35,246 nucleotides of DNA from a bacterium (lineage in GTDB: Bacteria > Elusimicrobiota > Elusimicrobia > UBA1565): NCBI GenBank assembly GCA_004322435.1, contig SCTT01000319.1:1-35246 (forward strand). The letters run 5' to 3'. A model generated the notes under the pieces. It did not search any database. It had not been told where the DNA came from and saw nothing but the letters and a program-made list of their open reading frames with translations. Shown piece after piece: positions 9,753-31,771 of the stretch. The position numbers and the translations under genes are program-made. How positions within the stretch are numbered: the first letter of the stretch is position 1; each line of letters opens with the position of its first letter.

Positions 9753-11526
9753 GGCCGTCCTCCTCGCCGCGGCCCTCTATGCGGGGACCTTGGCCGTCCT
9801 CCATGCCCCACTCCTGCGCGACCCGGGCCGGCCCGTGCTCGGCGGCGGGCAGGTCGCGGGCGTCCTGGTGTGGGAGGCCTGGTGGTTCGGCGGCGCGTGG
9901 CGCGCGGCCGGCCCCTCGCCTTGGACGTCGACGGCGCTCATGCACCCCGAGGCCGTCCCTGTGGGCCCGCACTCGCCGCTGAGCGCCCTCCTCTACTGGC
10001 CATTGGCAAAGGCCGTGGGCCTCTACGCGGGGGTGAACGCGCTGGCGCTCGCCGCCTACCTGGGGGCCGGGGTCGGGATGTTCCTATTGGCGTTCGAGCT
10101 GAGCGCGCACGGGCCCGCCGCGCTGGCCGCGGGCTTCGTGTTCATGTTCAGCCAGGAGTCCTTGACCCAGCATCGCCTGGGGCAATTCGGCCAAGCGTTC
10201 ACCGGGTTCCTCCCCGTGCTGTTTCTCGGACTGCGCCGCCTGGCCGACGGGCGTCCCGCGCGCCTCCCCCTCCTCCTCGGGGCCCTGGGCTCCGCGCTGG
10301 CGACGCCCTACACGGCCTTCGCCGCGCTCGGGGTCGGCGGGCCGCTCTACGCCGCCGCGCTGTGGGCGCGCGGCGAACTGGGCGACCCCCGCCGATTCGC
10401 GCGCGAGGCGGCCCTGGCCTGGGGGTTGGCGGCGGCGGCCTGCGCCGCGGCCTATTGGCCGGTGGTCGCGCCTTTGCCGGACCTCATCGGCGGCAGCGAG
10501 TCCTACTCGCTGAGCCTGCTGTCCTTCGTGGACCTCCCGGCCTGGCACCCGTCGCAGGCCGTGCAGTCGCTGCGGCGCCTCACCTCTGGCTTCCCCGACG
10601 AGGCCGCGCTCACGGCGGGCCGGGTGCTGAGCCGGCCGGGCCTGGCCCGCCGCGCCGCGGCCGAGCACCTGATGGGCTACTTCCCGCTGACGCTCTTGGC
10701 CCTGCTCGCCTGGGGCTGGCGCGCGAAGGCCGCGCGGGGGCAGGGCGCTTGGGGCCTCCTCGGCGCCGGGGCGCTCGTGCTGGCGCTGGGCCCGCACCTG
10801 CAGCCCGCCTTCGCGCCGACGGCCGTGCCTCTGCCCTACGCCCTCCTCCAGGCCCTCCCGCTCGTGGGGAGCCTGCGCGCCCCGGCGCGCCTGGCGACGC
10901 TGGCCTGGCTCGCCGCGGCGGTCTTCGCCGCGTTCGCGGTGCGAGCGCTCTGGGACGCGAACCGGCCCCGGGCCCGCGCGGCGCTCTTCTCGGCCCTGGC
11001 CGTCGGCTTCGCCTGGGAGCTGGCCCTGCCCCAAGCGGGCCGCTGGTGGACGGCGCTTCCGGACGGCGAGGCCTATGCGCTCCTGCGCGCCGACCCGCGC
11101 CCCGGCGCGGTGCTGGAGCTGCCCGCCGCGGTCGGGCCGGCGGGCGACGTCTCGGTGGACGTCCAGCCCTACATGCTCGCCCAGCCGCTCCACGGACGGC
11201 CGCTCGTGCTGGGGCGTCCGCCGCGGCACACCTGGGCCTCCCTTCGCACCGTGCTCAACACCGACGTCCTCTACGAGACGACGCACCCCGCCGTCCTGCA
11301 CGCGCTCTACGAGGACCCGCGCCTCGCCGCTCGGCGCGCGGCGCTGACGCAGGGCGGCCGCGGGGCCCTGCGGCGCGCGGGCGCGGCGTTCGTCGTGGTC
11401 CACGGGACGGACCCGCTCTTCTCGGAGGAGGTCCTGGCCGACTACCGCCGCTTCGTGGGCGACGTCCTCGGACCGCCGCTTTTGGTCGACCGCTTCGGCA
11501 TCGCCGTCTACGCGGTGGGTCCGTGA
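9715..11526 (+). CDS. Polytopic membrane protein, probable GT-C-fold (YfhO-like) glycosyltransferase
   Basis: Many hydrophobic helices, an LRAPARL motif, and a soluble C-terminal domain with AVLELP and YMLAQPLHGRPLV. The start is uncertain because it overlaps the upstream gene by 38 nt. Confidence 0.6.
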   Translation: MECPGPSWPRSSKAVLLAAALYAGTLAVLHAPLLRDPGRPVLGGGQVAGVLVWEAWWFGGAWRAAGPSPWTSTALMHPEAVPVGPHSPLSALLYWPLAKAVGLYAGVNALALAAYLGAGVGMFLLAFELSAHGPAALAAGFVFMFSQESLTQHRLGQFGQAFTGFLPVLFLGLRRLADGRPARLPLLLGALGSALATPYTAFAALGVGGPLYAAALWARGELGDPRRFAREAALAWGLAAAACAAAYWPVVAPLPDLIGGSESYSLSLLSFVDLPAWHPSQAVQSLRRLTSGFPDEAALTAGRVLSRPGLARRAAAEHLMGYFPLTLLALLAWGWRAKAARGQGAWGLLGAGALVLALGPHLQPAFAPTAVPLPYALLQALPLVGSLRAPARLATLAWLAAAVFAAFAVRALWDANRPRARAALFSALAVGFAWELALPQAGRWWTALPDGEAYALLRADPRPGAVLELPAAVGPAGDVSVDVQPYMLAQPLHGRPLVLGRPPRHTWASLRTVLNTDVLYETTHPAVLHALYEDPRLAARRAALTQGGRGALRRAGAAFVVVHGTDPLFSEEVLADYRRFVGDVLGPPLLVDRFGIAVYAVGP

Positions 11527-12719
11527 GGACCTTCTCGAAGGCCGCCGCGGCGCGCCTTTTCCTCGCGCGCCAGGGGCTGGACCGCCCGCGTTTTCAGCCC
11601 CTGACGCGGGAGTCGCTTGAGCGCTGCGCCGCGGCGACGGGCGGGCTGCAGCTCGATTCCATCAACGTGGTCGAGCGCGCGCACCGCCTGACGCTGTGGA
11701 GCCGCTTCGGCGCCTACGACGCGCAGGCCCTCGACGCCTGGGTCTACCGGGACCGCGCGCTCTTCGAATATTGGTCGCACGCCGCCTGCCTCGTCGCGCG
11801 GGAGCACCTGCCGGCGTGGCGGCGCGTGATGGCCGACTACAAGACCCGCCACACCGGCTGGTCGGGCTGGCTCCGGCGCAACGCCAAGGCCGTGGCCGCC
11901 GTGGAGGCCGAGGCCGCGGCGCGCGGCCCGCTTAAGGGCGGCGGCTTCACGCGGCCCAAGAGGCGCGGCGGGGGTTGGTGGAACTGGGACGCGACCCAGC
12001 ACGCGCTGCATTATCTTTGGATGGCCGGGCGCCTCGGCGTCGCCGCCCGCGTCAACTTCGAAAAGGTCTACGACCTGGCTTCACGCGTGCTGCCGGAGGT
12101 CGAGCCGCTGCCCGCCGCGGAGTTCCCCGGCTGGCACCTGCGCACGTCGCTGAAGGCGATGGGCGCGGCGACGGAGAAGGACCTGCGGATGTACATGACT
12201 TTCCCGCGGCAGAAGGCCGGAGAGCGCGGGCAGGCGCTCAAGGCCCTCCTCAAAGACGGGGAAGCCGTCGAGCTGCGGGTCGAGGGCGCGGAGGAGCCCT
12301 GGTACGCGCTCGCCGCGGACGTCCCAGCGCTTGAGAACCCGCCCGAACCGTCGGGGACGACGCTGCTTTCTCCTTTCGATTCCTTGATGTGGCACCGGGA
12401 GCGCGTCGTCCGTCTCTTCGATTTCGACTACAAGATCGAGGTGTACACGCCGGCGCCCAAGCGCCGCTACGGGTACTACGTGCTGCCCATCCTGCACGAC
12501 GGGCGCCTCGTGGGGCGGCTGGACCCCAAAAACCACCGGGACCGGAAGGTCTTGGAAGTGCGCCGGGTGCACCTGGAGGCGGGGGAGGAGAGGAACGCCG
12601 ACTCCATCCTGCAGGGGACCGCGGAAACCCTCAAATCCCTGGCCTCCCACCTCAAAGCCGAGCGGGTCGGCGTCACCGCGCGGGCCGCGCCGGGGCGGGC
12701 GCTCCGGGCGCTCCTCTAG
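11523..12719 (+). CDS. ycaQ: YcaQ/AlkZ-family (HTH_42) DNA cross-link repair glycosylase
   Basis: GTG at 11523. Motifs LQLDSINVVERAH (QxD), LFEYWSHAAC, LLSPFDSLMW and FDYKIEVYTPAPKRRYGYYVLPILHDGRLVGRLD. Confidence 0.88.
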   Translation: MRTFSKAAAARLFLARQGLDRPRFQPLTRESLERCAAATGGLQLDSINVVERAHRLTLWSRFGAYDAQALDAWVYRDRALFEYWSHAACLVAREHLPAWRRVMADYKTRHTGWSGWLRRNAKAVAAVEAEAAARGPLKGGGFTRPKRRGGGWWNWDATQHALHYLWMAGRLGVAARVNFEKVYDLASRVLPEVEPLPAAEFPGWHLRTSLKAMGAATEKDLRMYMTFPRQKAGERGQALKALLKDGEAVELRVEGAEEPWYALAADVPALENPPEPSGTTLLSPFDSLMWHRERVVRLFDFDYKIEVYTPAPKRRYGYYVLPILHDGRLVGRLDPKNHRDRKVLEVRRVHLEAGEERNADSILQGTAETLKSLASHLKAERVGVTARAAPGRALRALL

Positions 12720-13513
12720 CGGGTCCGGGTCGCCAGCATGTTGTGGGCGTCGAGCTTGCTCGTCGTGAAGCCGAACCCGGTCAGGAAGGCCGCGATCTCC
12801 CCTTCGGAGAGCCGCATCTTCTCGAGGATGGAGGGCAGGCACTCGAGGACGACGCAGCTCAGGCGCGGGTCCGCGAGCATCCGCCGCATCCCGCGCAGCG
12901 CCGCGAACTCCGCCCCCTCGATGTCCATCTTGACGAAGTCCGGGCACACCTCGGGGGGGAAGAGGCCGTCGAGGGAGACGCTGACGACCCGGCGCCCGGC
13001 CGCGCTGCCCGGAGGGGGCACCGCGATGGAATGCGCCGAGGGAGCGGCGTCGTTGCGGTAGAGGTCGGCGAAACCCAGGGACTCGGACACCGCGTAAGGG
13101 CAGACCTCGACGTTGCGGCAGCCGTTCTCGCGGATGTTCCGCTGCAGGAGCCAGAGGTTGTCGTGGTCGGGTTCGAACGCGTAGACCCGGCCCGCGGGGC
13201 CCACGAGCCGGGAGGCCAGCACGCTGTAGAACCCGATGTTGGCCCCCAGGTCGAAGACCGTCATGCCGGGCCGCAGGCGCTCCTTGAACGCGCGCGACTC
13301 GGCCGACTCGTACTCCTCCCCCATGCGCAGGCAGTCCGAGATCGCCTCGTCGTGGCCCTGCAGGTAGAACCGCATCGAGTCGACCTCGACGAAGTCCGGC
13401 TGCAGCCAGCCTTCCCAGACCAGGCGATGGAGGCGGTTGAAGACGCCTAAACCGAAGCCGAACCCGCGGGCCCGGCGGAAGAACGCCCGATACGCATCGC
13501 TCAACAAGCTCAC
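12716..13513 (-). CDS. FkbM family methyltransferase
   Basis: GTG at 13513 overlapping the asnB stop. Motifs VFDLGANIGFYS, VYAFEPD and FVKMDIEGAE. Confidence 0.92.
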   Translation of the reverse strand: MSLLSDAYRAFFRRARGFGFGLGVFNRLHRLVWEGWLQPDFVEVDSMRFYLQGHDEAISDCLRMGEEYESAESRAFKERLRPGMTVFDLGANIGFYSVLASRLVGPAGRVYAFEPDHDNLWLLQRNIRENGCRNVEVCPYAVSESLGFADLYRNDAAPSAHSIAVPPPGSAAGRRVVSVSLDGLFPPEVCPDFVKMDIEGAEFAALRGMRRMLADPRLSCVVLECLPSILEKMRLSEGEIAAFLTGFGFTTSKLDAHNMLATRTR

Positions 13514-15435
13514 GCGCCGAACCCCCTGAAATCCGGCCGGCACTTCTGGTGCCAGAGCTCGAGCATGAGGAGCGCCCACAGCCGGTAGCCGTGGTCGCGC
13601 CGGCGGGACTGGTGGTCGTCCCACATCTTGCGCAGGTAGGCTTCCTCGAAGTAGCCGCGGTTCAAGGCCTCGGGCGAGAGGACGGTCTCCTCGAAGTAGC
13701 GCTTGAGCTTGCCGCGGAACCACGGCGCCATCGGGATGCCGAAGCCCATCTTCGGGCGCTTCGTGATGGACTGCGGGAGCTTGTCGGCGAAGGCCCTTTT
13801 CAGGATCCACTTGTGCCCGCGCAGGCCCTTGAGCTTCCACTCGCCCGGCAGCCGGAAGGCCGTCTCCATCACCTCGTGGTCGAGGAAGGGCGAGCGGGCC
13901 TCCAGGGAGTTCGCCATCGAGGCGATGTCCATCTTCACCATCAAATCTTCGGGCAGGTACGTGACGACGTCCGTGTAGAGCATCCGGTTGACGAAATCCT
14001 CGCCCTTCGAGCGCTCGTAGGCGTCGCCCAGGTAGCTGGCCGCGCGGGAGCGCGCGCCGGCCTCCTCCTCCCCGAGGGCCCGGCGCATCGCGGGGCCGTA
14101 GAGCCCCTGCTTGTCCTCGTCGGAGAAGTAGCAGATGACCTTGAGGTGGCGCTGGGCGAAGTCGCCGAAGACGGCCGCGCGCAGGAAGCGCTTGGCGCGC
14201 CACAAGGTCGAGAAGGGCGCGTCCTTCTCGGGCAAGTACTCGGCGCCCGCGACGATGAGCCTCTTCAGCGGGCCCGGGACCACGTCGTAGAGGCGCGCCG
14301 CCTTCATCGCGAAGTAGCGCACATAGCCGGCGAAGGCCTCGTCGCCGCCGTCGCCGTTTAAGGCCACGGTCACGTGCTTGCGCGTCTCGCGCGAGACGTA
14401 GTACGAGGGCAGGGCCGAGGCGTCGGCGTAGGGCTCGCCGTAGTGCCAGGCCAGCTTCGGCAGGACGTCGGCCATGTCGGCCGTGACGACGAACTCGTTG
14501 TGGTCGGTGCCGTACTGACGGGCGACCTGGCGGGCGTAGGGCAGCTCCGAGAAGGCGTCGTGGTCGAAGCCGATGGAGAAGGTCTTGACCGGCCGCTCGG
14601 AGAGCCCGGCCATGCACGCGACGACGATGGAGGAGTCGATCCCGCCCGAGAGGAAGGCTCCCAGCGGCACGTCGCTGATCATCCGCAGCTTGACCGCCTC
14701 GATGACCTTCGCGCGGACCATCTCTTCGGCCTCGCGGACGTCGGCGGTGAGCCGCGGCGCGCCCAGCGGCAGGTCCCAGTAGCGCTCGATGGTGACCCGG
14801 CCGTCCTGGTAGGTCAGCGTGTGCGCGGGCGGCAGCTTCTTGACGCCCTTATAGATGGTGCCCGGCGCGGGGATGTACTGCAGCGACAGATAGAGGTCGA
14901 TGGCCCGGGCTTCGAGCGCCGTGTCGACCCCGTCCCAGACCAGCAGGGACCTGAGCTCGGAGGCGAAGGCCAGGCCGCCGGGGAGGAGCGCGTAGAGCAG
15001 CGGCTTCTTGCCGATGCGGTCGCGCGCGAGGAAGAGGCGCTTGTCGCGCTTGTTCCAGACGGCGAAGGCGAACATGCCGCGCAGGCGGCCGACGGCCGCC
15101 GCGCCTTCCTTCTCGTAGAGGGCGAGGACCACCTCAGTGTCGGAGCGCGTCTTGAACGGATAGCCGGCCGCCTCGAGCGGCGCGCGCAGCTCCTGGAAGT
15201 TATAGACCTCGCCGTTGAAGACGATGACGAGGTTCCCGTCGCGGCTCTCCATCGGCTGATGGCCGCCGGACACGTCTATGATGGAGAGGCGCCGCATCGC
15301 CAGGGCCGCGTGGTCGTCGGTGTAGAAGCCCTCGTCATCGGGCCCGCGGTGGGTGATTAGGTCGTTGGCTTTTTTAAGGCGCGCGCGGTCGGCCTTGCCG
15401 GGCGAGGCGAAGACCGCGCCGACGATGCCGCACAT
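13510..15435 (-). CDS. asnB: Asparagine synthase (glutamine-hydrolysing) family amidotransferase, probably acting on a glycan
   Basis: MCGI Ntn start, HRGPD, RRLSIID, FNGEVYNF, ARDRIGKKPL, FLSGGIDSS, GDGGDE, KMDIASMANSLEARSPFLD. Confidence 0.93.
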   Translation of the reverse strand: MCGIVGAVFASPGKADRARLKKANDLITHRGPDDEGFYTDDHAALAMRRLSIIDVSGGHQPMESRDGNLVIVFNGEVYNFQELRAPLEAAGYPFKTRSDTEVVLALYEKEGAAAVGRLRGMFAFAVWNKRDKRLFLARDRIGKKPLLYALLPGGLAFASELRSLLVWDGVDTALEARAIDLYLSLQYIPAPGTIYKGVKKLPPAHTLTYQDGRVTIERYWDLPLGAPRLTADVREAEEMVRAKVIEAVKLRMISDVPLGAFLSGGIDSSIVVACMAGLSERPVKTFSIGFDHDAFSELPYARQVARQYGTDHNEFVVTADMADVLPKLAWHYGEPYADASALPSYYVSRETRKHVTVALNGDGGDEAFAGYVRYFAMKAARLYDVVPGPLKRLIVAGAEYLPEKDAPFSTLWRAKRFLRAAVFGDFAQRHLKVICYFSDEDKQGLYGPAMRRALGEEEAGARSRAASYLGDAYERSKGEDFVNRMLYTDVVTYLPEDLMVKMDIASMANSLEARSPFLDHEVMETAFRLPGEWKLKGLRGHKWILKRAFADKLPQSITKRPKMGFGIPMAPWFRGKLKRYFEETVLSPEALNRGYFEEAYLRKMWDDHQSRRRDHGYRLWALLMLELWHQKCRPDFRGFGA

Positions 15436-16665
15436 CTAGGCGGCCCTCCGCGGCGCGAGGCGGGCCCAGGCGCCTTGGGCGCCCAGCGCGGCGAGCACCG
15501 CCAGGGCGGGCACGGCGGGGACCACGTAGCGGGAGAGGCCCTGGGTCAGCAGGTGGATGTTCATATAGAGGATGAGGGCCGTCACGGGGCGCGCCGCGGG
15601 GGTCTTCCACGACAGGACCATGCCGGCCAGGGCCGCCAGCAGGAAGGCCGCCTCGGCGCCCTTCGCGAGGACCTTGCCCACGGCGGCGCCCCAGGCCCCC
15701 TCGCGACGGTAATCGGCGAAGGCCCGGTCCAGCCCTAAGCCCTGCTCGGCCCAGCCGCCGTCGAACCAGATGGTCTTAAGACGCCCCACGCAGAACCCGA
15801 CGTAGCGCAGCGGCGCGCGCCGGATGTTGGCGAGCGCGACCTCCTTCGAGGCCGGGCCGATTTGCGGGTCGTGGGCGAAATAATAGCCGCGGATGGGCTC
15901 CGGCAGCGCCTCGTCGGGCGTGATGCCCTGGACGCCCTCGGTCGACTGGTAGAACGCGTGCAGTCCCATGCCGTCTTCAAAAGGTATGACACGCCCGAAC
16001 AGCAGGAAGTTCCGCACGAGCCACGGCGCGACGAAGAGGTAGGCCGCCGCTGTCATCATGAGGCCCCAGCGCCAGGCGCCCGGCCGGCCGGTCCAGGAGG
16101 GGAGGAAGGGGGTCAAGAGCGGCGGCAGGAGCAGCAGGCTGGAGCGGCAGGTCAGCGACAGGCCGGTCACGGCGCCGGCGGCCAGCCAGGGGCGCGCCGA
16201 GTCCCCGCCCTCCTGGACGGCGCGCACGAGGAGGAGCATCAGCGCCGCGAAGAGGAAGGAGAGCACGCTCTCATAGCCCGTCGTGAAGTCGAGGTGCGCG
16301 GAGAAGGGGTTGAGGACGGCCATCAAGGCGGCCGCGGCGGCCCAGCGCTCCGGCGTCAGGCGGCGGGCGGCGAGGTAGGTCAGGACCGCGGCCCCCATAG
16401 ACAGGAGGATGTTCATGACGATGACCGGCGTGGGCCCCGCCGACCCGGTCAGGCGGATGAGGAGCGCGAGCGTCAGAGGCCAGAAGGGGAGGCGGAAGGC
16501 CGTGGGGGTGAGCCCGTCGTAGGCGTAGACGCCGTGCTCGGCCAGGGACCGGGCGATGAGGTGGAAGTCCCCCTCCACGGGCGTCAGCAGCCCGGGGTTG
16601 ATCCAGACCTTGAAGGCGCGGAAGGCCAGCCCGGCGGCCAGGACGGCCCAGACGGCGCGCGGCAT
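15436..16665 (-). CDS. GT-C fold (ArnT/PMT-like) membrane glycosyltransferase
   Basis: ATG at 16665 with TGATG overlap. Acidic residues follow the first TM helix (EGDFHLIARSL), then PTAFRLPFWP, YES, APWLVRN and a C-terminal SRYVVP; polytopic. Confidence 0.72.
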   Translation of the reverse strand: MPRAVWAVLAAGLAFRAFKVWINPGLLTPVEGDFHLIARSLAEHGVYAYDGLTPTAFRLPFWPLTLALLIRLTGSAGPTPVIVMNILLSMGAAVLTYLAARRLTPERWAAAAALMAVLNPFSAHLDFTTGYESVLSFLFAALMLLLVRAVQEGGDSARPWLAAGAVTGLSLTCRSSLLLLPPLLTPFLPSWTGRPGAWRWGLMMTAAAYLFVAPWLVRNFLLFGRVIPFEDGMGLHAFYQSTEGVQGITPDEALPEPIRGYYFAHDPQIGPASKEVALANIRRAPLRYVGFCVGRLKTIWFDGGWAEQGLGLDRAFADYRREGAWGAAVGKVLAKGAEAAFLLAALAGMVLSWKTPAARPVTALILYMNIHLLTQGLSRYVVPAVPALAVLAALGAQGAWARLAPRRAA

Positions 16666-17651
16666 CAAGACGTCCGCGCGGCGGCCTTCGGGAAGTGCTT
16701 GCGGCGCACCTCCTCGCGCACCCAGGCGTAGGTGCGCTTGAGGCCCTCTTCCAAGCTGATCCGCGGCTCCCAGCCGAGGACCGCGCGCAGCTTCGAGTTG
16801 TCCGAGTTGCGTCCGCGCACGCCCTGCGGGCCCGGCACGTGCTTTTTGACGATCTGGACGCCCGCCGCCGCGGCCACGAGGTCCGCCAGCTGGTCGATGG
16901 AGACCATCCGGTCCTGACCCAGGTTCAAAGGCTCCGCGTGGTCCGAGCGCATCAGGCGGGAGATGCCCTCGACGCAGTCGTCGATGTAGCAGAACGAGCG
17001 CGTCTGCTTGCCGTCGCCCCAGATCTCGACTTCGGGGTTGCCCGAGAGCTCGGCGAAGGCCACCTTGCGGCACATCGCGGCGGGGGCCTTCTCGCGCCCG
17101 CCGTCCCAGGTGCCCTGCGGCCCGAAGATGTTGTGGAAGCGCACGATGCGCGCGGTGATGCGCTTTTCCTCGTTGGCGTGCAGGCACAGGCGCTCGGTGA
17201 GGAGCTTCTCCCAGCCGTAGGCGTCCTGCGGCTGGGCGGGGTAGGCGTCGTCCTCCTTCAAGGGCACGACGTCGGCCGAGGTCTGCTTGTACTCGGGGTA
17301 CACGCAGGCCGAGGAGGTGTAGAAGTAGCGCTTGACGCCCGCGCGCAGGGCCCCTTCGAGGGTGTTGATGTTGATGAGGGCGTTCGAGGAGAGGATCGTG
17401 TAGTGGTTCGCCGAGATGTAGCCCATCCCGCCCATGTCGGCGGCCAGCGCATAGACCTCGTCGACCCCTTGGGCCGCGGCGTCGGCGGCGGCGCGCTCGC
17501 GCAGGTCGCAGACGCTGAACTCGTCGGCGTCCGTGGGGGCGTATTCGGGCTTCTTCAGGTCGGCCCCGCGCACCCAATGGCCCTGGGCTTTCAGGTAGGT
17601 GACGAGGTGGTGGCCGATGAAGCCGCCGGCGCCGGTGACGAGGATTCTCAT
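16665..17651 (-). CDS. GDP-mannose 3',5'-epimerase (GME)-like extended SDR
   Basis: TGAGGFIG, AADMGGMGYI, SSACVYPE, PQDAYGWEKL, RFHNIFGPQGTWDGGREKAPAAMCRK, WGDGKQTRSF and GPQGVRGRNSDN match the plant GME signature blocks. Confidence 0.88.
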   Translation of the reverse strand: MRILVTGAGGFIGHHLVTYLKAQGHWVRGADLKKPEYAPTDADEFSVCDLRERAAADAAAQGVDEVYALAADMGGMGYISANHYTILSSNALININTLEGALRAGVKRYFYTSSACVYPEYKQTSADVVPLKEDDAYPAQPQDAYGWEKLLTERLCLHANEEKRITARIVRFHNIFGPQGTWDGGREKAPAAMCRKVAFAELSGNPEVEIWGDGKQTRSFCYIDDCVEGISRLMRSDHAEPLNLGQDRMVSIDQLADLVAAAAGVQIVKKHVPGPQGVRGRNSDNSKLRAVLGWEPRISLEEGLKRTYAWVREEVRRKHFPKAAARTS

Positions 17652-18565
17652 AGCAGGCTCCGATAGCGGGTGAAGGCCTTGGCCGCGCGCTCGGGCAGGA
17701 AGGCGGTCAGCGCCTCCTTGTCCTTCTGCAGCGCCGTCACCAAGGCGAGGTTCTTCTCGTAGCCGAGGAACTCGCCCACCATGTCCTTGGTGAAGTCGTG
17801 CACGTTGCGGTCCTGGCGCACCGAGGGCTTCGCAAAGACGACCTTGAACCCCTGCGCCTGCAGGTGGTACGCGCCCCAGATGTCGTCCATGCGGCCGATG
17901 CCCGGGAACATGAAGTAGTGCCGCAGGGCCTCGCGGGTCAGGAAGGTGTTCTGGGAGTTGAACGGCGCCCAGGCGTTTGAGGCCAGCGGGAAGCCGGCCG
18001 CCTCGAAGCGGCAGGCCGGGCGGTGCTCCATGCGGCAGAGCGCGTCGATGTCGGGGTCCCCGTCCCAGAAGTCGGCCTGCACGTCGCAGCGGCCGAGCGG
18101 CTCGCCCGCCGCGACCTGCGAGTAGTCGCGCTTGTGCAGGAGCTGCAGCGGGTAGCCGCGGTGCCACAGGTGGCGGTAGTTCGTGGCGCCGACGGGGTCG
18201 AAGACCGGGAGGTCCGTCTTGAAGAGGCGGCCGCGGGGGTGCGTGCCGACGAGGAGGTCCGTCCCCCAGCCCTCGTAGGGGACGTTGTCGTCGTCGACCG
18301 TGGCGACGACGTCGGCGCCCTGGCGGTAGGCGTGGAGGAAGCCCATGTTGCGGCGCTGGATGCAGCTCCAGCCGATGGCGTCGGAGAGCTCCTTGTCGAG
18401 CTCCTCCTGCATCGCCGGCGTCATGTAGAGGCCGCGACCCAGCTTGTAGTCGGCCGGGGTCTTCTTGTCTCCGACGACGACGAGCTCCCAGCCCTCCATC
18501 CGGTCGAAGAGCCGGATGGCCTCGGTGGGCGGGTTGATGGTGGTCGAGACGATGAACTTCTTCAT
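17648..18565 (-). CDS. STELLO/DUF288 / RGP (GT75)-like protein; candidate NDP-sugar pyranose-furanose mutase
   Basis: ATG at 18565. Motifs TTINPPT, VVVGDKKTP, RRNMGFL, VDDDN, WHRGYP, GDPDIDA, PFNSQNT and GRMDDIW. No TM helix or signal peptide. Confidence 0.72.
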   Translation of the reverse strand: MKKFIVSTTINPPTEAIRLFDRMEGWELVVVGDKKTPADYKLGRGLYMTPAMQEELDKELSDAIGWSCIQRRNMGFLHAYRQGADVVATVDDDNVPYEGWGTDLLVGTHPRGRLFKTDLPVFDPVGATNYRHLWHRGYPLQLLHKRDYSQVAAGEPLGRCDVQADFWDGDPDIDALCRMEHRPACRFEAAGFPLASNAWAPFNSQNTFLTREALRHYFMFPGIGRMDDIWGAYHLQAQGFKVVFAKPSVRQDRNVHDFTKDMVGEFLGYEKNLALVTALQKDKEALTAFLPERAAKAFTRYRSLL

Positions 18566-19272
18566 CCCGCCTGCCCCGGGTTGGCCCCGAGCACCTCGCG
18601 GGCGAGGTACCCGAGCAGATGCGTCCCGCCCGCCAGCGCCTTGAAGTGCGTCTCGCCGTAGAAGCGCGGGCTCTCGACGGCCGGCACCTCGGTGCGCGAC
18701 TGGCGGAGCTTGTAGGAGCGGGCGGCCATGCACAGATCGACCGAGTGCCCCTCCTCCTCGACCCTCATCGCCTTGAAGGCCTCCACGCGGAAGCCCTTGA
18801 TGCCGTGCAGGATATCGGTGAGGTACGCGCCCTCGCGGCGCCACAGGAGCGCGACCAGGGCGCCCAGGACCTGGACGAACCACTTGCGCGGACGCACCAC
18901 GTCGGCGTCCTCCTCGTTGCGGCCGCCGGCCATGTTGCGGCTGGCGGCCACGAGGTCGGGTCCGGCCAAGAGGGCCTTGCGGATGTCGCTGACGATGGAC
19001 ACCGGCACGGTGCCCTTCGGGAAGAAGACGACCAGCGCGTCGGTCTTGGCTACGCGCGCGGCGTGGACGTACGCGGCGTTCAGGCCGCGCTTGGGCTGCA
19101 CGTGGACGGGGATCCCTAAACCCTTCAGGTAGTCGCCCGTGCCGTCCTTCGAGCCGCCGTCGACGCAAAAGACCTCGTCGAACTCGCCGCGCGGCAAGAG
19201 CGGCACGTCGCGGCGGCAGCCTTCGAGCTCGTTGAAGGTCAGCAGGCACAGGCCGACGGTGGGGGCGCTCAT
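18562..19272 (-). CDS. Glycosyltransferase family 2, short Dpm1/polyprenol-phosphate glycosyltransferase-like
   Basis: 236 aa. Motifs LLTFNE, VDGGSKDGT, DLVAASR, TDILHGIKGFR, EVPAVESPRFYGET. The DxD motif is degenerate. Confidence 0.75.
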   Translation of the reverse strand: MSAPTVGLCLLTFNELEGCRRDVPLLPRGEFDEVFCVDGGSKDGTGDYLKGLGIPVHVQPKRGLNAAYVHAARVAKTDALVVFFPKGTVPVSIVSDIRKALLAGPDLVAASRNMAGGRNEEDADVVRPRKWFVQVLGALVALLWRREGAYLTDILHGIKGFRVEAFKAMRVEEEGHSVDLCMAARSYKLRQSRTEVPAVESPRFYGETHFKALAGGTHLLGYLAREVLGANPGQAG

Positions 19273-19287
19273 CGGGAGACCCTTAGG

Positions 19288-20385
19288 CTAGCAAACACGG
19301 TAGAGGGCTTCCACGCGGGCGGCCACCGACTCCATCCCGAACGCCTTCGCCCGCTCGCGGGCCCCGGCCGCGAGGCGCGCGCGGAGGCCGGGGTCGTCCA
19401 ACAGCCGCCGCAGCGGCGCCGCGGCCCCCGGGTCCGGGTCGCCGTCGAAGAGCAGGCCGCTGCGCCCGTCCTCGACCGCCTCGGCCGTCCCGCCGACCCG
19501 GCTGCCCAAGACCGGCAGTCCGGAGGCCAAGGCCTCGAGCAAGGCGTTCGAGAGGCCCTCCGAGACCGACGGAAGCACGAACACGTCCGCGGCGCGGTAG
19601 AGCGGCGCCGGGTCACAGACCGGCTCGAGGACGCGCGGCCCCAAGGCCTCGAGGGCCACCCGCTCGGGACCGGCGCCCACGCAGACGAACTGGGGCGGCG
19701 GGACCGTCCCCGCGCACGCCCGCCCGAACGCCCTCGCGAAGGCCGGCAGGCGCTTCTCCCACGCCAGGCGGCCCATGTAAAGGAACACGGGGCCGGGGCC
19801 CAATCCCAGAGCGGCGCGCAGGGACTCCTTCTCGCCCGAGGCGGGAGGCCGGAAGCGTTTAAGGTCCACGCCGTTGGGGACGACTTCCGCCGTCCCCAGG
19901 CCGTGCTCCGCGAGCTCGTCGGAGAGCTCGGCGGCGACGGCGATGAAGCGCGGACGCAGGAGCTTGAAGAGCGCGAGCTTGAGCCGTCCCGCGGCGCTCT
20001 TGGCCGACAGCGCGATCTCGCCGATGCCCTTCCCCCCGCCCAGCTTCACGACCGCGGGCTTCCCGAGCAGCCTCCCCGCCAACGCCGCGGCCAGCGCCGG
20101 GGAGGAGGCGAGGTGGGCGTGCACCGCGTCGTAGTCGCCCCGCAGCAGACGTTTGAGGCAGGCCGCGAAGAACACCGACGAGTTGAGGACCCCGCCGCCC
20201 CAGGCCGCCAGGCGCTCGACCGGGACGCCGTCGACGTCCTCGCGCGCGGGGAGACCGGGCAGGGCGCGGGTGAGCACGAAGACGTCGTGGCCGCGCGCGC
20301 GCAGCGCGCGGGAGAGCTCGTAGGCCTGGCGCTCGGCCCCGCCCAAGGACGGCGGGAAGCCCGCGCTGACCATGGCCACCCTCAC
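19288..20385 (-). CDS. Glycosyltransferase family 4 (GT-B)
   Basis: GTG at 20385. Motifs FPPSLGGAE, VVPNGVD, YMGRLAWEK and FVLPSVSEGLSNALLEALASGLPV. Confidence 0.92.
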   Translation of the reverse strand: MRVAMVSAGFPPSLGGAERQAYELSRALRARGHDVFVLTRALPGLPAREDVDGVPVERLAAWGGGVLNSSVFFAACLKRLLRGDYDAVHAHLASSPALAAALAGRLLGKPAVVKLGGGKGIGEIALSAKSAAGRLKLALFKLLRPRFIAVAAELSDELAEHGLGTAEVVPNGVDLKRFRPPASGEKESLRAALGLGPGPVFLYMGRLAWEKRLPAFARAFGRACAGTVPPPQFVCVGAGPERVALEALGPRVLEPVCDPAPLYRAADVFVLPSVSEGLSNALLEALASGLPVLGSRVGGTAEAVEDGRSGLLFDGDPDPGAAAPLRRLLDDPGLRARLAAGARERAKAFGMESVAARVEALYRVC

Positions 20386-21413
20386 GGGCCCGGCCTTTCC
20401 GCCAAAAACCCCACCTTGGGCACGACGCCGTGGGCCAGTTGGCTGACGATGCGCAGTCCCGCGCCTTCGAACCAGCCGCGCACCTCCTCTTTGGTGTGCT
20501 TGGTCTGAAACGGCGGGGCCAGCCAGTCGAAGTTCTCGATGAGGCGCACGCCGAACTGGGGGTCGACCGAGTACGTCAGGTACTTGAGCACGGGCACCGC
20601 GCCGAGCAGCGTCAGCGGCCAGCACAGCGCGTAGAGCAGATGGAAGGGCATCCGCGTCGTGACGACGCGCAGGGAATCGGAGAGGAGCTGGCGCGCCCAC
20701 ACGAGGACCCACACCAACGGCAGCGCGCTCCTGAGCCAGGCGCGCGTCGAGCGCAAGGGGTTCGTCTTGAAGCTGGACCAGGGGCCGGGCGTGCCGTAGA
20801 CCCACACCGAGAGCTTCCCCCCCTTCTTGACGAGAGGGGCGATGCGGTCGAAGGCGCCCTTCGTGTCGGCGGTGTGGTGGATGACGCCGTGGCTGAACAC
20901 CAGGTCGAAGGTCCCGGCCTTAAACGGCGGCCGCAGCAAGTCCCCCTGGACGACGTGCAGGCGCGGGTTCTCGCGCATCGTGCGGATCAGTCGCGTCAGG
21001 GCGTCCGAGAGGTCCACCGAGACGACCTCGGCGCCGAGCTCCAAGGCCGCCAGCGAGAAGCGGCCCATGCCGCAGCCCGCGTCCAGCGTGAGCTTGCCGG
21101 CCAGGGCGGCGGGCGGCAGCTGCACCTCCTCCAAGAAGATGTCCCGGTCGACGCCCGGGCGGGGGCCCGGGTAGCGGTGCCACTCGAAGCCGAAGCGCTC
21201 GGCGGTGCTCGCGACGCGGCCGTCCTTCATCGCGTCGCCCAAGCGCAGGCGCGGGACGCCGTCGGCGATGGGGTACTGCACAGAGCAGCGCCGGCAGCGC
21301 AGGGAGCCGCTGTCGAGCTCGGCGCCCTCGTGAGGATGGTCGTCTAAAGAGGCGAACTCGAGCTCCCCCGAGCAGACGGGGCAGGCCAAGAGCGGGAGGA
21401 GGGCCATCTTCAT
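20382..21413 (-). CDS. Class I SAM methyltransferase with an N-terminal Trm112-like Zn-binding domain
   Basis: ATG at 21413. LLACPVC...LRCRRCSVQYPIADGVPRL, followed by LDAGCGMGR and FSHGVIHHT. Confidence 0.85.
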   Translation of the reverse strand: MKMALLPLLACPVCSGELEFASLDDHPHEGAELDSGSLRCRRCSVQYPIADGVPRLRLGDAMKDGRVASTAERFGFEWHRYPGPRPGVDRDIFLEEVQLPPAALAGKLTLDAGCGMGRFSLAALELGAEVVSVDLSDALTRLIRTMRENPRLHVVQGDLLRPPFKAGTFDLVFSHGVIHHTADTKGAFDRIAPLVKKGGKLSVWVYGTPGPWSSFKTNPLRSTRAWLRSALPLVWVLVWARQLLSDSLRVVTTRMPFHLLYALCWPLTLLGAVPVLKYLTYSVDPQFGVRLIENFDWLAPPFQTKHTKEEVRGWFEGAGLRIVSQLAHGVVPKVGFLAERPGP

Positions 21414-23236
21414 ACGCTGAGACGGTACCAAACGAGCCCAGCGCGCGCCCAGGCCGCCCAGGCGAGCACGGCCGCGAGGCACAAGAGCGTCCAGCCCGGC
21501 GGCTCATAGCGGAAGTCGGCCTGAAACGGGCCGTCGGGGACGTCCACCTGCAAGAACAGGCCTTCGGCCAACCGCGTCGGGGCGGGACGCCCGTCCACCC
21601 AGGCCCGCCAGCCGGGGCACTCCGGTATCGCGAAAGTCAACGGGCCGGGCCCCGCGCCGCGCACGCGCCAGGACTCGGGCCGCGGGCTCTGCACGGAAGC
21701 CGACCCGCCGGGGACGCGGGCCAGAGCCGCGGCGCCGTCCACGCGCGCGTAGGGGGTCCCGCCGGGTCCGGGCAGGACGGCCGACACGCCCAGCGCGCGC
21801 ACGCCGGGGGCCGAAGGCGTCGCAAGATAGAGCCGGCTCGGGTCCGCGGCCGGACGCCCTTCGGCCGCGAAAGCGTACTCGGCCAGGCGCGCGGGGTAGT
21901 AGGCGGCGTAGCCGTTCACGTTCATCAGCCGGTACATCATCGTCTTGTCGGCGTTGGGCAGGCCCGGCGCCGTCAGCACCCGTTCGAGGCGCCCGCCCAA
22001 GGCCTCGGCCACCGCGCGGTTGGGCGCGAGGTACGCCGCGGCGTCCTCGGAGCCGAGGAGAGACGCGCCCGTCCGCCCCGCCTCGGCCAGCGCCGCCAGC
22101 GCGAGCACGCCCGCGCCGAGCCGTGCCGTGCGCGAGGCGCTGCGCGCGAAGCGGGCCCAACCCAGCGCCGCCGCCAGCCACAGGCCCCAAAGGGTCCAGA
22201 CGCCGAAGCGCGCGGGCACGCGCGAGAGCGCGGCCAGCGGCCCGTCCTTCCAGAGCGCCCACCACGGAGCGTGGGAGCCCGCCGCCAGCGCCGCGCCGGC
22301 GGCGGCCAAGGCCCACCCGGCGCGGGCGGCCGGCAGGGAGCCGGCTCCGGCCGCCGCGGCCGCCAGCGGCGCGAGCCCCAGGCTCAGCGCGTACTCCTCG
22401 AACCACTCCGACGGGTCGCCCGCGAACGTGCCGTCCCGCGGGTCGCCGAAGGCGCGGGGCGAGAGCAAAGTCGCCAGCGCCCGCGGCGGCATCGAGTAGG
22501 CGGACGCGAAGGCCTCCGGCAGGCCGCGGCGGTTGGAGCGCGTCAGGAGCTCCGCGGCGGGCACGGCCTGCACGAGCGCGAGCGCCGCCGCGCCGGCGGC
22601 CCCGACGAGGAACGCGCGGCCGCGGCCGCGCGGCTCGGCCAGCGACCAAGACGCCATCGCCAGGGCGTTCATCGCCGCGAACTGCGGGTGGCCGCTAAGC
22701 CCTTGGAGCGCCCAGACGCCGGCGAGGAGCCAGGCCCTCCGCTCGAGGAGGGCGAGCCAGCACCAGGGAACCCACGCGAGGGAGAAGAGCAGGGTCGGCA
22801 CGCCCTGGAGCAGCCGCCCGGCCGTGAACGGGGAGAGCGCGAACGCCGCGCCGAGCGCCGCGGCGGAGGCCGCCCCGGCGCCGAGGCGGCGCGCCAGCAG
22901 CTGCGCGCCGACGAAGGCCAAGAGCAGATGGAAGAAGGCCAGCGCCGTGAACGCCCATACGGCCGGGAACAGGCGCGTCAACGTCGCCGGCGGGTAGAAG
23001 AGCGCCGTCTGCGGGTCGGCCAGGTGCGGTACGCCGGAGAAGACGTAGGGGTTCCAGAACGGCAGGTGGCCGGCGGCCAGGCGCGACGCCGCGAGGTGGT
23101 GCAGCGGCACGTGATAGCCGTAGAGGTCGCCGAAGTTCGCGACGGCCCGGCCCGGATCGAGCAGCGCCGGGCCCAGGAGCGCCGCGAAGGCGGCGGCCGC
23201 GGCCAGCGCCCAGGCGGCGTCGCGGCGCCCGGTCAC
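21410..23236 (-). CDS. YfhO-like GT-C membrane protein
   Basis: GTG at 23236. Motifs FGDLYGYHVP, LPFWNPYVFSGVP...FYP, GHPQ, RVPARF, and C-terminal PGWRAWVDG...FRYEP. Confidence 0.75.
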   Translation of the reverse strand: MTGRRDAAWALAAAAAFAALLGPALLDPGRAVANFGDLYGYHVPLHHLAASRLAAGHLPFWNPYVFSGVPHLADPQTALFYPPATLTRLFPAVWAFTALAFFHLLLAFVGAQLLARRLGAGAASAAALGAAFALSPFTAGRLLQGVPTLLFSLAWVPWCWLALLERRAWLLAGVWALQGLSGHPQFAAMNALAMASWSLAEPRGRGRAFLVGAAGAAALALVQAVPAAELLTRSNRRGLPEAFASAYSMPPRALATLLSPRAFGDPRDGTFAGDPSEWFEEYALSLGLAPLAAAAAGAGSLPAARAGWALAAAGAALAAGSHAPWWALWKDGPLAALSRVPARFGVWTLWGLWLAAALGWARFARSASRTARLGAGVLALAALAEAGRTGASLLGSEDAAAYLAPNRAVAEALGGRLERVLTAPGLPNADKTMMYRLMNVNGYAAYYPARLAEYAFAAEGRPAADPSRLYLATPSAPGVRALGVSAVLPGPGGTPYARVDGAAALARVPGGSASVQSPRPESWRVRGAGPGPLTFAIPECPGWRAWVDGRPAPTRLAEGLFLQVDVPDGPFQADFRYEPPGWTLLCLAAVLAWAAWARAGLVWYRLSV

Positions 23237-25176
23237 GCGGCCTCCGCGAGCAGGCCCCGCGCGGACCAGAGGCCCAGCGCCGCGAGCGTGACCAGGGTGA
23301 GGGAGAGGCCGAGCCGGAAGGAGAGCGGGTCGTAGCGCAGCACCACCCGCCACGGGCCGGCGGGGACCGGACGCTTCACGAAGGCCCCCAGCGCGGGCTC
23401 GAAGGCGGGGCGCGGCGGCCAGGCGCGCCAGCCGGGGCCGAGCGGCTCGGCCAGGTAGAGCCAGCCCGCCTCCTCGGCGGCCCCCGCCGCCTCGAGGCGC
23501 CCCGGGCCCGAGCGAGCGACGCTGAGCGGCCGCGCGGCCGCGGGGTCGGGGGGTTGCGCCGAGTCCGCGGGGAGCGCGGCGCCGGCCGCCGGGGGGAACC
23601 ACCAGGCGCGGGCGACCGGCGCGACGGGGGTCGAGACGTCCCAGAGCGCGGCCCCGCGCGGCGTCAGGCCCGGGGCCGAGACGGGGCCGGGCGTGAGCAG
23701 CGCGCCGGCGTCGGCCCAGGGCATCCAGCGCGCCGCCTCGGCGGCGCCGGAACGGCTTTGGATGAAGTCGAGGAAGGCGTACTGCCGGGCGGGCACGAGC
23801 GGCTCCCCGAAGCCGGTGACGGACTCGACGCGGTAGGGCGCGTTCGAGAGCCCGTAGAGGCGGCGCTTTAAATCCAGCGCGGCCTGGTCCGAGTCGGACC
23901 CGACGGCGCGCTGGGCGTGCAGGGCCTTGGGCGACATCAGCACGCGGTGCGGACCCGCCGCCGCGCGCGCGGCGGCCACGACGGGCCCCGCGTCCGTCCA
24001 AAGCGCCGCCGGGGCGGTCGGATGGGCGCCGGCCGCGTAGACGGCGAGCTCGGCGAGCGCCGCCGCCAGCGCCCACGGCGCCCAGCGCCGGCCGGAGAGC
24101 CCCCGCGCGCACAGGAGCGCGAGCAGCGGGACGAGGAGGTAGGACAGGTTCCCGGGATAGCGGACGTAACGCAGCGGCGGCAGCGCCGCCCAGAGCCCGC
24201 GCGAGACGGGGTTCGTCCCGCCGAGGAGGAGCAGGGCCGTCCCCGCCCCGTACACGAGCGCCCCGGCCGCCGCCGCGGGACCGGCCGCGGTCAAGCCGAG
24301 GAGCGCCGCCGCGCCCGGGACGAGGCCGGCGTAGGCGGTCTTCCACCACCAGACGGCCGGGTCGTAGTCGGCCGGCGGGATGAGCGGCGGAGCGCTCAGC
24401 TGCACGAGGTCCCGCGGCGTAAACGACCAGGTCAGGGCCTCCTCGGACGACAGCCCCGCGCCGCGCTTCGAGCCGCGCGCGAGCTCGAGGGCCGGCACGA
24501 GCAGCACCCCGGCGAGCGCCGCGGCGAGCGCCGCGGCGGCGGCCCAGCGTCCGGCCCGGGCCGCGAGCCCCGCGAAGCCCTCGGCCCGCCGGACGCTCAA
24601 CAAAAACGCCGCCAGCGCCCCGCCCGCCGTCATCGTGGGATAGCCGGCGAGGAAGGAGAGCGCCAGCGACAGGGCCAACGGGAGCGGCGCGTCGGCGAAA
24701 AGCAGGAACGCCGGCAAGAACGCCAGCGCTCCCAGATGGTTGAGGAACGGCAGCCGGCTGACCGCGACGCCGCCCAGCGCCGCCGCGACGGCCCCCGCGG
24801 CGGCGGCCGAACGGGAGAAGCCTCCGCGGCGCAGCGCCAAGAGCCACAGCGCGGCGGTCAGGGCGTAGCTCAGCGCGTGGTAGACGGCCAGCGCGGAGGC
24901 GAAGCCGAACAGGTGGAAAGGCGCCGTCAGAGGATGCCAGGCCGCGCACTGCATCTGGGCGGCCAGCGGCATCCCGAGGTAGTCGTAGGGGTTCCAGAGC
25001 GGAAGCGCCCCCGCCTGCGCGAGCTGCGCGGGCAGCGCGCGCCAGGCGAAGTGGATGTAGAGGAGGTCGCCCCAGTAGAAGGTGCGCCCGGCCAGACGCA
25101 ATCCGCCGAACAGCGCGCCCGCCAGGGCCGCGCCGGCGGCCAGGACCCCGAAGTCGCGGCGCGAGAGCCCGCTCAT
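23233..25176 (-). CDS. YfhO-like GT-C membrane protein
   Basis: ATG at 25176. Motifs WGDLLYIHF, LPLWNPYDYLGMP, GYPT, VRYPGN, and C-terminal PGWRA...LRYDPLSFRLGL. Confidence 0.75.
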   Translation of the reverse strand: MSGLSRRDFGVLAAGAALAGALFGGLRLAGRTFYWGDLLYIHFAWRALPAQLAQAGALPLWNPYDYLGMPLAAQMQCAAWHPLTAPFHLFGFASALAVYHALSYALTAALWLLALRRGGFSRSAAAAGAVAAALGGVAVSRLPFLNHLGALAFLPAFLLFADAPLPLALSLALSFLAGYPTMTAGGALAAFLLSVRRAEGFAGLAARAGRWAAAAALAAALAGVLLVPALELARGSKRGAGLSSEEALTWSFTPRDLVQLSAPPLIPPADYDPAVWWWKTAYAGLVPGAAALLGLTAAGPAAAAGALVYGAGTALLLLGGTNPVSRGLWAALPPLRYVRYPGNLSYLLVPLLALLCARGLSGRRWAPWALAAALAELAVYAAGAHPTAPAALWTDAGPVVAAARAAAGPHRVLMSPKALHAQRAVGSDSDQAALDLKRRLYGLSNAPYRVESVTGFGEPLVPARQYAFLDFIQSRSGAAEAARWMPWADAGALLTPGPVSAPGLTPRGAALWDVSTPVAPVARAWWFPPAAGAALPADSAQPPDPAAARPLSVARSGPGRLEAAGAAEEAGWLYLAEPLGPGWRAWPPRPAFEPALGAFVKRPVPAGPWRVVLRYDPLSFRLGLSLTLVTLAALGLWSARGLLAEAA

Positions 25177-26642: not shown

Positions 26643-26652
26643 GCCGCCCCCG

Positions 26653-28791: not shown

Positions 28792-28795
28792 GGGG

Positions 28796-29398
28796 TCACT
28801 CCTCCGCCTCATCGGCGTCCTCACCGAGCCTCAAAGTCTGGACGTCCTTGTCGGCCGTCGTCAGGGTCACCGTCTTCTGCGCGGGCTGGATCACGCCGGT
28901 CACGCCCGGCACGGGCTTCTTGCGCATGTCGTAGAGCCGGCCGCCGCGCAGGATGAAGCTGAAATGGGTGTTCATGTCGACGAGCATCGCCGACATCCCC
29001 GCCTTGTCGCGCATGATGCCCTTGAGCTCGAGCTGGTGGATGCTGAACTCCTCGGGGTCGAAGTCCTTGGGCGGCGCCGCGACGGGCGCCGCGGCGGCGC
29101 CGGAGCCGCCGAGCTTCATGAAGGGGTCGCGCAGCTTGGCGCCGCCATAGATGTCGTCGACGCCGAGCGCCTTGACGCCGCCGGTCGACTCCTCGACCGC
29201 CGGGGCCTTCTCCTTCTTGGGCTTGCGGGGGGCGTCCTGCTGGGCGGCCGAGAGCCCGGGGGTGCCCGGCTGCCCGCCGCCGCCCGAAGGAGCGGCCGTC
29301 GGCTCGGACGGCGCGCCCGGCCCACCCATCGGCATGGGCGGGCCGCCCTGCGAGAAGGCGGGGAGGGCCAAGAGGAGGGAGAGGGAGAGGGCGGTCAT
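28796..29398 (-). CDS. pilP: PilP-like protein
   Basis: Lies between pilO and pilQ. Has a signal peptide, a disordered N-terminus, an RDPF motif, and EEFSIHQLELKGIM opening a beta-rich domain. Confidence 0.7.
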   Translation of the reverse strand: MTALSLSLLLALPAFSQGGPPMPMGGPGAPSEPTAAPSGGGGQPGTPGLSAAQQDAPRKPKKEKAPAVEESTGGVKALGVDDIYGGAKLRDPFMKLGGSGAAAAPVAAPPKDFDPEEFSIHQLELKGIMRDKAGMSAMLVDMNTHFSFILRGGRLYDMRKKPVPGVTGVIQPAQKTVTLTTADKDVQTLRLGEDADEAEE

Positions 29399-31651: not shown

Positions 31652-31709
31652 CGTCCTCCGCCGCCCGGGGGCGGCCATGCGCGTCCCGCTGCGCGCGGTC
31701 CGTGCGACC

Positions 31710-31752: not shown

Positions 31753-31771
31753 CACAGCGTCCACCACCCAC

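Follow-up and report, generated by a model that had tools for sequence, protein, structure and literature searches.

Four overlapping genes of an Elusimicrobiota bacterium (GenBank assembly GCA_004322435.1) raise the question of what becomes of a GDP-L-hexose when the enzyme that would make it is encoded beside a relative of the pyranose/furanose mutase MtdL, and when both are flanked by glycosyltransferases. The genes lie on contig SCTT01000319.1, of which the whole stretch of 35,246 nucleotides (nt) analysed here is called the window, and they are co-directional on the minus strand with successive overlaps of 4, 4 and 1 nt, which confirms the four overlapping genes of an earlier note on this DNA. 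They encode a probably soluble GT2 glycosyltransferase of the polyprenyl-phosphate-sugar synthase type that lacks a DXD motif (18562-19272; 236 amino acids, aa), an MtdL-like, GT75-related putative GDP-L-galactopyranose/furanose mutase (17648-18565; 305 aa), a 3,5-epimerase of GDP-mannose (GME; 16665-17651; 328 aa) and a GT-C membrane glycosyltransferase resembling PMT_2, ArnT and Rgt proteins (15436-16665; 409 aa). The GT2/mutase and mutase/GME junctions are both ATGA, and the GME/GT-C junction is TGATG with an overlap of 1 nt. The window is high in guanine and cytosine (GC content 0.67-0.79), and the GC content at third codon positions in the four frames is 0.95-0.98.

We hold it somewhat probable that the products of these four genes act in a single pathway, in which a lipid-linked furanose of L-galacto configuration is made and used. 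In such a pathway the GME, given its strong homology, would turn cytoplasmic GDP-D-mannose into GDP-L-galactopyranose and, as a side product, GDP-L-gulose. By analogy with MtdL, the 305-aa enzyme would then contract the ring to give GDP-L-galactofuranose, Arg136 acting as the nucleophile and Asp228 as the base while the DDD motif holds a divalent metal. The fold of the GT2, which is like that of dolichyl-phosphate mannose synthase (DPMS) and ArnC, and the coupling of its gene suggest that it would load the sugar on polyprenyl phosphate at the inner membrane face; after flipping, the GT-C would transfer the sugar at the outer face to a surface glycan or protein of the surrounding locus. The earlier note had sketched this same route, from GDP-mannose through GDP-L-galactopyranose, GDP-L-galactofuranose and a lipid-linked sugar to periplasmic transfer, and as a predicted pathway it is supported by the sequence comparisons and structure models that follow.

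The epimerase and its candidate mutase partner

A sequence search of the Protein Data Bank (PDB) with the 328-aa protein matched its residues 2-318 to the Arabidopsis GME (2c59) with an E-value of 8e-110, the runner-up family, UDP-glucuronate decarboxylase, reaching 1.8e-28 only. The catalytic blocks SSAC (113-116), Y145xxxK149 and GREK (185-188) are intact, in agreement with the earlier note. In the passages of PMC8787198 drawn on here, such epimerases are told from GalE and GDP-fucose synthase by a triad (S143/Y174/K178), an acid-base pair (C145/K217) and the residues R306, R243 and N203, with an acidifying Arg, a diphosphate Arg and a wall Asn forming part of the criteria. The aligned residues of the window protein are S114, Y145 and K149, then C116 and K188, and finally R281, R218 and N174, so that each position carries the residue expected of this class, and the protein is, judged by its sequence, a true GME.

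The 305-aa protein encoded next to it contains DDD (91-93), RGYP (136-139), PDIDA (171-175) and GRMDDIW (224-230), all of which had been quoted in support of a label that likened it to plant reversibly glycosylated polypeptides (RGP) and to STELLO proteins. When the PDB was searched with phmmer, only MtdL chains were found (E 4.6e-21), and a profile built from 20 family members again found MtdL chains (E 1.3e-28) and, with E <= 0.01 as the limit, no other chain, the rice UDP-arabinopyranose mutase (UAM) being absent. Its AlphaFold2 model has a predicted local distance difference test score (pLDDT) of 89.7, and Foldseek places MtdL first (query TM-score 0.78, E 1.4e-19), followed by rice UAM2 (E 2.6e-10). 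With VIA-align the model superposes on MtdL (7yua) with a Z-score of 30.1 over 301 of its 305 residues at a root-mean-square deviation of 2.8 Å, rice UAM2 (8cid) scores 21.3 and other GT-A chains score at most 14.7. The model contains the full-length MtdL/UAM fold, that is, the GT-A Rossmann part, the special core and the C-terminal helices. At the family level, the RGP domain of Pfam (PF03214) is matched by 4 of the 20 members (best E 2.5e-6), and the STELLO domain (PF03385) is weakly matched by 11 of the 20 (best E 1.1e-3), the window protein not being one of them. The RGP side of the label thus stands on PDB sequence, fold and family-level matches to MtdL and UAM, although the window protein itself has no domain match, and the suggestion that it might hint at the biochemistry of STELLO/DUF288 proteins was set aside as the matches are too weak.

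The passages of PMC9937993 used here describe MtdL as an Mn2+-dependent GDP-L-galactopyranose/furanose mutase of the A201A pathway, with Arg159 as proposed nucleophile and Asp260 as proposed base, and report that both MtdL and Hyg20 convert GDP-L-galactose as well as GDP-L-fucose; the substitutions D109N, D195N, D260N, R159K, R257K, Q229A and D87N/S abolish MtdL activity. Mapping through HMMER alignments places MtdL Asp109-111 at D91-93 of the window protein, Arg159 at R136, Asp195 at D172, Ser228-Gln229 at S204-Q205, Arg257 at R225, Asp260 at D228, Arg289 at R253 and His292 at H256. Conservation was followed in 160 homologues, 80 from genome loci (contigs from one genome per species, the best 80 of 254 confirmed relatives) and 80 from metagenome loci (the best 80 of 224 confirmed relatives, many on short contigs), and, His292/H256 excepted, the mapped residues are unchanged in all 160.

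The glycosyltransferases and the neighbourhoods of the mutase family

By sequence the GT2 has a weak Pfam match (PF00535, E 8.2e-7) and no match in a PDB sequence search. Its top NCBIfam models are all polyprenyl-phosphate transferases, each far under its cut-off (AglJ, 50.5 bits against 325; dolichyl-phosphate-hexose transferase, 36.2 against 375; PpgS, 16.7 against 370). The AlphaFold2 model (pLDDT 88.2) is closest in Foldseek to the DPMS of Pyrococcus furiosus (5mlz; query TM-score 0.72, E 2.9e-13), followed by the DPMS entries 9ep0 and 5mm1 and then by ArnC, after which come glucosyl-3-phosphoglycerate synthases (GpgS, with similar scores from rank 7) and GtrB. This modelled fold supports the label 'Dpm1-like' that the earlier note had attached to the protein. 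Of 2625 candidates for the GT2 family, 434 proteins score E <= 0.001, and the nearest named relative is from an Elusimicrobia metagenome-assembled genome (85% identity). Homologues of 228 aa with 57-59% identity, which likewise lack DXD, occur in Variovorax and Rhodoferax, and a NEED motif at residues 119-122 is conserved in the subfamily.

The GT-C was described beforehand as ArnT-like, which agrees with a Pfam PMT_2 match above the gathering cut-off (39.2 bits against 26.1) and with a polytopic protein of at least 5 hydrophobic segments at a strict threshold. Its nearest Atlas clusters are PMT_2, GT39 and RgtA-D-like (score 0.99), with 49-82% PMT_2 among the neighbours, and a PDB sequence search with it gave no match. 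Homologues of 38-42% identity adjoin a window-type GT2 and a mutase homologue in four other loci (L001, L005, L108 and L109), and L109 carries all four genes on one strand, arranged as GT-C, GT2, mutase and GME, with identities of 42, 66, 66 and 68% respectively. In an alignment of only three true homologues, the first outer loop, where enzymes of this class have a conserved acidic residue, reads E31-G32-D33 in the window GT-C, H-G-D in L001 and S-P-Y in L005.

The mutase family itself is large: of 7276 candidates, 5304 sequence clusters scored E <= 0.001. Its named entries are nearly all annotated as hypothetical proteins, and across phyla the identity remains 59-69%. Members come from Elusimicrobia, Bacteroidota, Cyanobacteria (Prochlorococcus among them), Actinomycetota, Planctomycetota and other phyla. 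Neighbours of the 160 homologues were counted with representative queries. Of the 80 genome loci, 61 have a GT2 gene next to that of the mutase; within 300 bp the common form of about 250 aa (GT2a) occurs in 56, another type (GT2b) in 3 and the window type in 2. Three types of short-chain dehydrogenase/reductase (SDR) were counted as partners: an uncharacterised extended one (SDR1) lies within 300 bp in 49 genome loci, a GME of at least 40% identity occurs anywhere in the locus in 12 (within 300 bp in 6), a GDP-fucose-synthase-like (Fcl-like) SDR is found in 4, and 18 loci have none of the three types. A separate clustering of 724 neighbouring open reading frames agrees with these counts (GT2a in 41 loci, SDR1 in 44, GME in 9 and Fcl-like in 5).

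Metagenome loci are richer in GME, which occurs in 34 of 80 (16 within 300 bp) and in 17 of the 33 loci that extend 1.2 kb or more to each side. A GME thus stands beside a mutase homologue in 46 of the 160 loci, 22 times within 300 bp; as a given 1-kb gene in a genome of 4 Mb would lie no more than 6 kb from another by chance in only a fraction of a percent of cases, this rate is far above chance and the linkage is real. Among the 47 GME-type matches, the catalytic Cys is retained wherever the sequence reaches its position (41 of 41), as is the catalytic Lys (43 of 43), and an actinobacterial GME-linked form is seen at L008, L035, L042, L057 and L067. The earlier note had proposed that the frequency of GME beside bacterial homologues be measured; the linkage that it expected is there, but in the genome loci SDR1 is the commoner partner.

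SDR1 is encoded directly downstream of the mutase homologue (for example L010:7920-8867, L043 and L064, the last from the cultured Dethiosulfatarculus sandiegensis) and has SSSAAYP in place of the SSACVYP of GME, with YGWAK present and without the Cys/Lys pair or the Lys loop. Its best PDB match is weak (6zl6, an 'Epimerase domain-containing protein', E 2.6e-19), and its Atlas clusters are only the generic 'NAD-dependent epimerase/dehydratase'. The Fcl-like SDRs score 242-456 bits on the Fcl model (cut-off 500) and carry the Cys and His that PMC8787198 gives for GMER. In L001 and L005, which share the GT2 and GT-C types of the window, such a Cys/His, GMER-like SDR is accompanied by a 4,6-dehydratase-like gene, L109 having a GME instead; in L005 the gene beside the Fcl-like one resembles Gmd, the GDP-mannose 4,6-dehydratase (172 bits against a cut-off of 415). 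L-fucose is 6-deoxy-L-galactose, hence the substrate class of these Fcl-type sister modules matches that of the window. These observations fit a modular cassette whose SDR slot is filled by GME, a GDP-fucose-synthase-like enzyme or SDR1, and the GME and Fcl cases fit a mutase of L-galacto-type GDP-hexoses that is fed by whichever SDR occupies the slot.

A tree of the 80 genome-locus mutase homologues and the window protein, built with a quick method and carrying SH-aLRT supports only, requires at least 3 origins of the GME association. The window protein is weakly placed (supports 79-88) beside L052 and L053, neither of which has any of the three SDR types; a looser grouping joins it to L001 and L005, the Elusimicrobia loci with an Fcl-like SDR.

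Points against, alternative readings and the surrounding locus

Several observations weigh against the reading of the four genes as an L-galactofuranose pathway. The supply of GDP-mannose rests on partial matches to the GDP-mannose pyrophosphorylase model, which are all that the source assembly shows, and GME yields GDP-L-gulose as well. The 305-aa protein has no match in a Pfam and NCBIfam scan even at E <= 10, RGP (PF03214) included; the MtdL Mn ligand His287 corresponds to Gln251, the position being Gln in 158 and His in 2 of the 160 homologues, and MtdL Asp87 corresponds to Ile69, Ile being found in 152 of the 160. The GT2 shows no hydrophobic segment at a Kyte-Doolittle threshold of 1.6, and VVFFPKGT, which falls within residues 79-88 and is conserved in a 21-sequence family alignment, occupies the usual GT-A place of the DXD motif, where the commoner GT2a of other loci has S-D-L-E; in the model a strand at 79-83 is followed by F84-P85-K86, beta-4 having been placed from the model and not by a residue alignment to DPMS. 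No small flippase gene of the GtrA or ArnE/F type is seen in the cassette. Finally, a true GME is absent from all 5 genomes with the SDR1 triad that were searched (best match 39% identity, 94 bits), and since SDR1 is the partner in 49 of the 80 genome loci, the substrate of the family would not always be L-galactose.

The substitutions at His287 and Asp87 concern the middle protein, for which the earlier note had proposed RGP/MtdL-type mutase activity. What holds of that proposal is the full-length MtdL fold and the invariant catalytic set; what does not is the identity of these two residues, and because both are defining features the protein was not filed as a plain GT75 member. By analogy it represents a sister family that most likely works like MtdL. 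The same substitutions are the starting point for a reading, unlikely in our estimation, in which L-galactose or L-gulose is loaded on the lipid as the pyranose and the MtdL-like protein, no mutase, could act as a transferase, glycosylate itself on arginine or be a regulator that no longer has a metal site. Both positions, changed in nearly all members, are tied to metal binding and activity in MtdL, inactive AtRGP5 lacks the equivalent of His287, a loss that has been linked to its inactivity, and GT75 proteins self-glycosylate too (PMC9937993, in the passages cited above). The fold of the 305-aa protein is that of GT-A enzymes. The same passages of PMC9937993 note, however, that active plant RGPs have Ser and not Asp at the Asp87 position, and the Gln form accompanies a true GME in 46 of 46 GME-linked loci. 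Moreover, the other catalytic and sugar-binding residues are invariant despite an identity of only 44-67% to the window protein, and such strict conservation of the remaining site argues for a working enzyme.

A division into two unrelated units is a quite improbable alternative: GME and mutase would supply GDP-L-galactose, possibly as the furanose, to a cytoplasmic glycosyltransferase of the Wzx/Wzy-type locus, and GT2 and GT-C would decorate the glycan with another sugar. The window does hold Wzx, Wzy_C, GT2 and GT4 genes, and the more divergent GME-mutase pairs of the metagenomes (43-55% identity) sit without a GT2/GT-C pair in O-antigen or capsule clusters that contain Wzz, NeuB, aminotransferases and GT10/GT11 fucosyltransferase-like genes. 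Against such a division stand the 61 of 80 genome loci in which a GT2 gene neighbours that of the mutase, the 4-nt overlap of the two genes in the window, and the renewed association of window-type GT2, GT-C and mutase in L001, L005, L108 and L109. The GT2-mutase-SDR loci look like lipid-donor cassettes, and the same nucleotide-furanose may be used directly by cytoplasmic transferases as well. In low-GC aquatic metagenomes, GME-mutase pairs adjoin GT10/GT11-like genes (L139:4689-5498, L139:9784-10626 and L165:2510-3316), which are candidate users of GDP-L-galactose in either ring form.

That the mutase acts on another nucleotide sugar, such as a UDP-pentose in the manner of plant UAMs, and has the GME as a mere neighbour is very improbable, for although the family is about as common beside a non-GME SDR and its plant relatives use UDP-L-arabinose (PMC9937993, same passages), its profile finds only MtdL in the PDB and not rice UAM, its base-choice positions Thr8 (a mapping taken from alignment ranges) and Cys/Ser68 resemble Thr13 and Ser86 of MtdL, RGPs having Pro and Asp there, the window shows no gene for UDP-xylose or arabinose, and the mutase and GME genes overlap by 4 nt. 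A plant-like UDP-arabinose mutase was accordingly rejected as an identity for the window protein, given the MtdL-only profile match and the MtdL-like base-choice residues.

Returning to the lipid-linked L-galactofuranose that we favour, its acceptor may be sought in the run of genes to which the cassette belongs. This co-directional run starts on the minus strand with pilMNOPQ (26653-31711) and, after a 10-nt gap, continues with a Wzy_C-type gene, a 647-aa membrane protein that has no Pfam match, a YfhO/DUF2079-like membrane protein, a Trm112-fused methyltransferase, a GT4 glycosyltransferase, the four cassette genes, an amidotransferase and an FkbM methyltransferase. The Trm112-like methyltransferase (20382-21413, minus strand), between the YfhO-like gene and the GT4 gene, has an N-terminal zinc ribbon and a hydrophobic-looking C-terminal part. 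The GT4 gene (19288-20373, minus strand; Pfam Glyco_trans_1_4 and Glyco_transf_4) stops 15 nt upstream of where the GT2 gene begins, and the AsnB-type glutamine amidotransferase (13510-15435, minus strand; Pfam Asn_synthase, E 1.3e-105) begins with zero gap immediately past the GT-C stop codon and is possibly in the same operon as the cassette. The tight glycan gene run, which has three further large membrane proteins, reaches 12716 on the minus strand. The best NCBIfam matches of these two flanking proteins are both PEP-CTERM/XrtA-associated and below their cut-offs (amidotransferase, TIGR03108, 616 bits against 816.9; GT4, TIGR03088, 97.7 bits against 409). Such sub-cut-off matches hint that the acceptor may be an exopolysaccharide of the exosortase type.

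Glycosylation of pilin by the run downstream of pilMNOPQ is also possible. The TfpW system of Pseudomonas aeruginosa places lipid-linked D-arabinofuranose on type IV pilin, and a pilin acceptor here would parallel that system. The fuller version of this idea is a long shot: polyprenyl-phospho-L-galactofuranose, which no lipid-linked L-furanose donor would precede, would be passed to type IV pilin by a GT-C-like membrane enzyme encoded directly downstream of pilMNOPQ, and the SDR slot would set the furanose that a flavin-independent, GT75-like mutase family with Gln in place of His supplies to envelopes in many phyla.

On the other side of the window lie the genes of Wzx and WecB, of two more GT2 and one more GT4 glycosyltransferase and of a sugar dehydrogenase. 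A gene for an AlkZ-like DNA glycosylase (11523-12719, plus strand; E 1.3e-66) is convergent with the glycan operon and is preceded by an open reading frame of 578 aa (9790-11526, plus strand) without a Pfam match. A consensus scan for promoters and terminators over 12300-32200 placed all terminator-like sites inside genes and is uninformative for such high-GC DNA.

The source assembly (4.04 Mb, 92% complete) contains the mutase gene in single copy. It has no Gmd above the cut-off (best 138 bits against 415), so the GME is the visible route to an L-hexose in this genome. Among 41 related genomes searched, the window's own included, 4 have the mutase gene; it is missing from both searched genomes that share the window's genus, which are 100% and 95% complete, and present in all 3 of one other genus. 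This patchy distribution fits a mobile surface-decoration module.

Comparison with known systems

In the literature found, the antibiotic A201A is the sole known source of L-galactofuranose. To our knowledge, D-arabinose, in mycobacteria and related bacteria, is the only sugar with a known lipid-linked furanose donor. If the proposed pathway is correct, bacterial envelopes would gain a flavin-independent way of making furanoses, a large family that is nearly always labelled hypothetical would gain an annotation, and the enzymes would provide a source of scarce GDP-furanoses. Of the cassette's forms, that of the window tells most, since its true GME names the sugar. No paper that places a GT75-like mutase of bacteria in a lipid-carrier cassette came up in a literature search with little coverage of subscription journals.

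Periplasmic glycosylation from a lipid carrier is known from ArnC/ArnT, from GtrA/GtrB with a Gtr GT-C, from RgtE/RgtA-D of Rhizobium and from mycobacterial decaprenyl-phosphate-arabinofuranose with the Emb/Aft GT-C enzymes. The cassette likewise pairs a DPMS/ArnC/GtrB-like GT2 with a PMT_2-type GT-C, and its donor would, like decaprenyl-phosphate-arabinofuranose, be a lipid-linked furanose. The sugar and the route to it, through GME and a flavin-independent mutase, would be new, and the cassette differs from these systems in a GT2 without DXD or a hydrophobic segment and in having no flippase gene of the GtrA or ArnE/F type.

MtdL comes from Marinactinospora thermotolerans and Hyg20 from the hygromycin A pathway. 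With MtdL the 305-aa protein shares its full-length fold, the DDD motif and, within RG(Y/F)P, the Arg nucleophile, together with Asp195, Asp260, the Ser-Gln pair, Arg257, Arg289 and His292, as well as a partner enzyme that makes a GDP-L-hexose. It is shorter than MtdL (305 against 376 aa), is about 25% identical to it and has Gln for His287 and Ile for Asp87; moreover, its gene stands in a surface-glycan locus with a lipid-carrier GT2 and a GT-C, whereas those of MtdL and Hyg20 stand in antibiotic clusters. The plant UAM/RGP proteins (GT75, PF03214) are the second-best structural match, and plant UAMs use UDP-sugars. The plant Golgi STELLO proteins (PF03385) are matched weakly by family members and not by the window protein. 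Compared with the GMEs of plants and Methylacidiphilum (PMC8787198, PMC6678494), no sequence-level difference was found in the window enzyme, which keeps the Ser/Tyr/Lys triad and the Cys/Lys pair as well as the two Arg and the Asn; the sink for its product would here be a furanose donor and not ascorbate or the L-galactopyranose of lipopolysaccharide. Gln in place of His287, Ile in place of Asp87 and a GT2 without DXD set this cassette apart from plain members of the known kinds.

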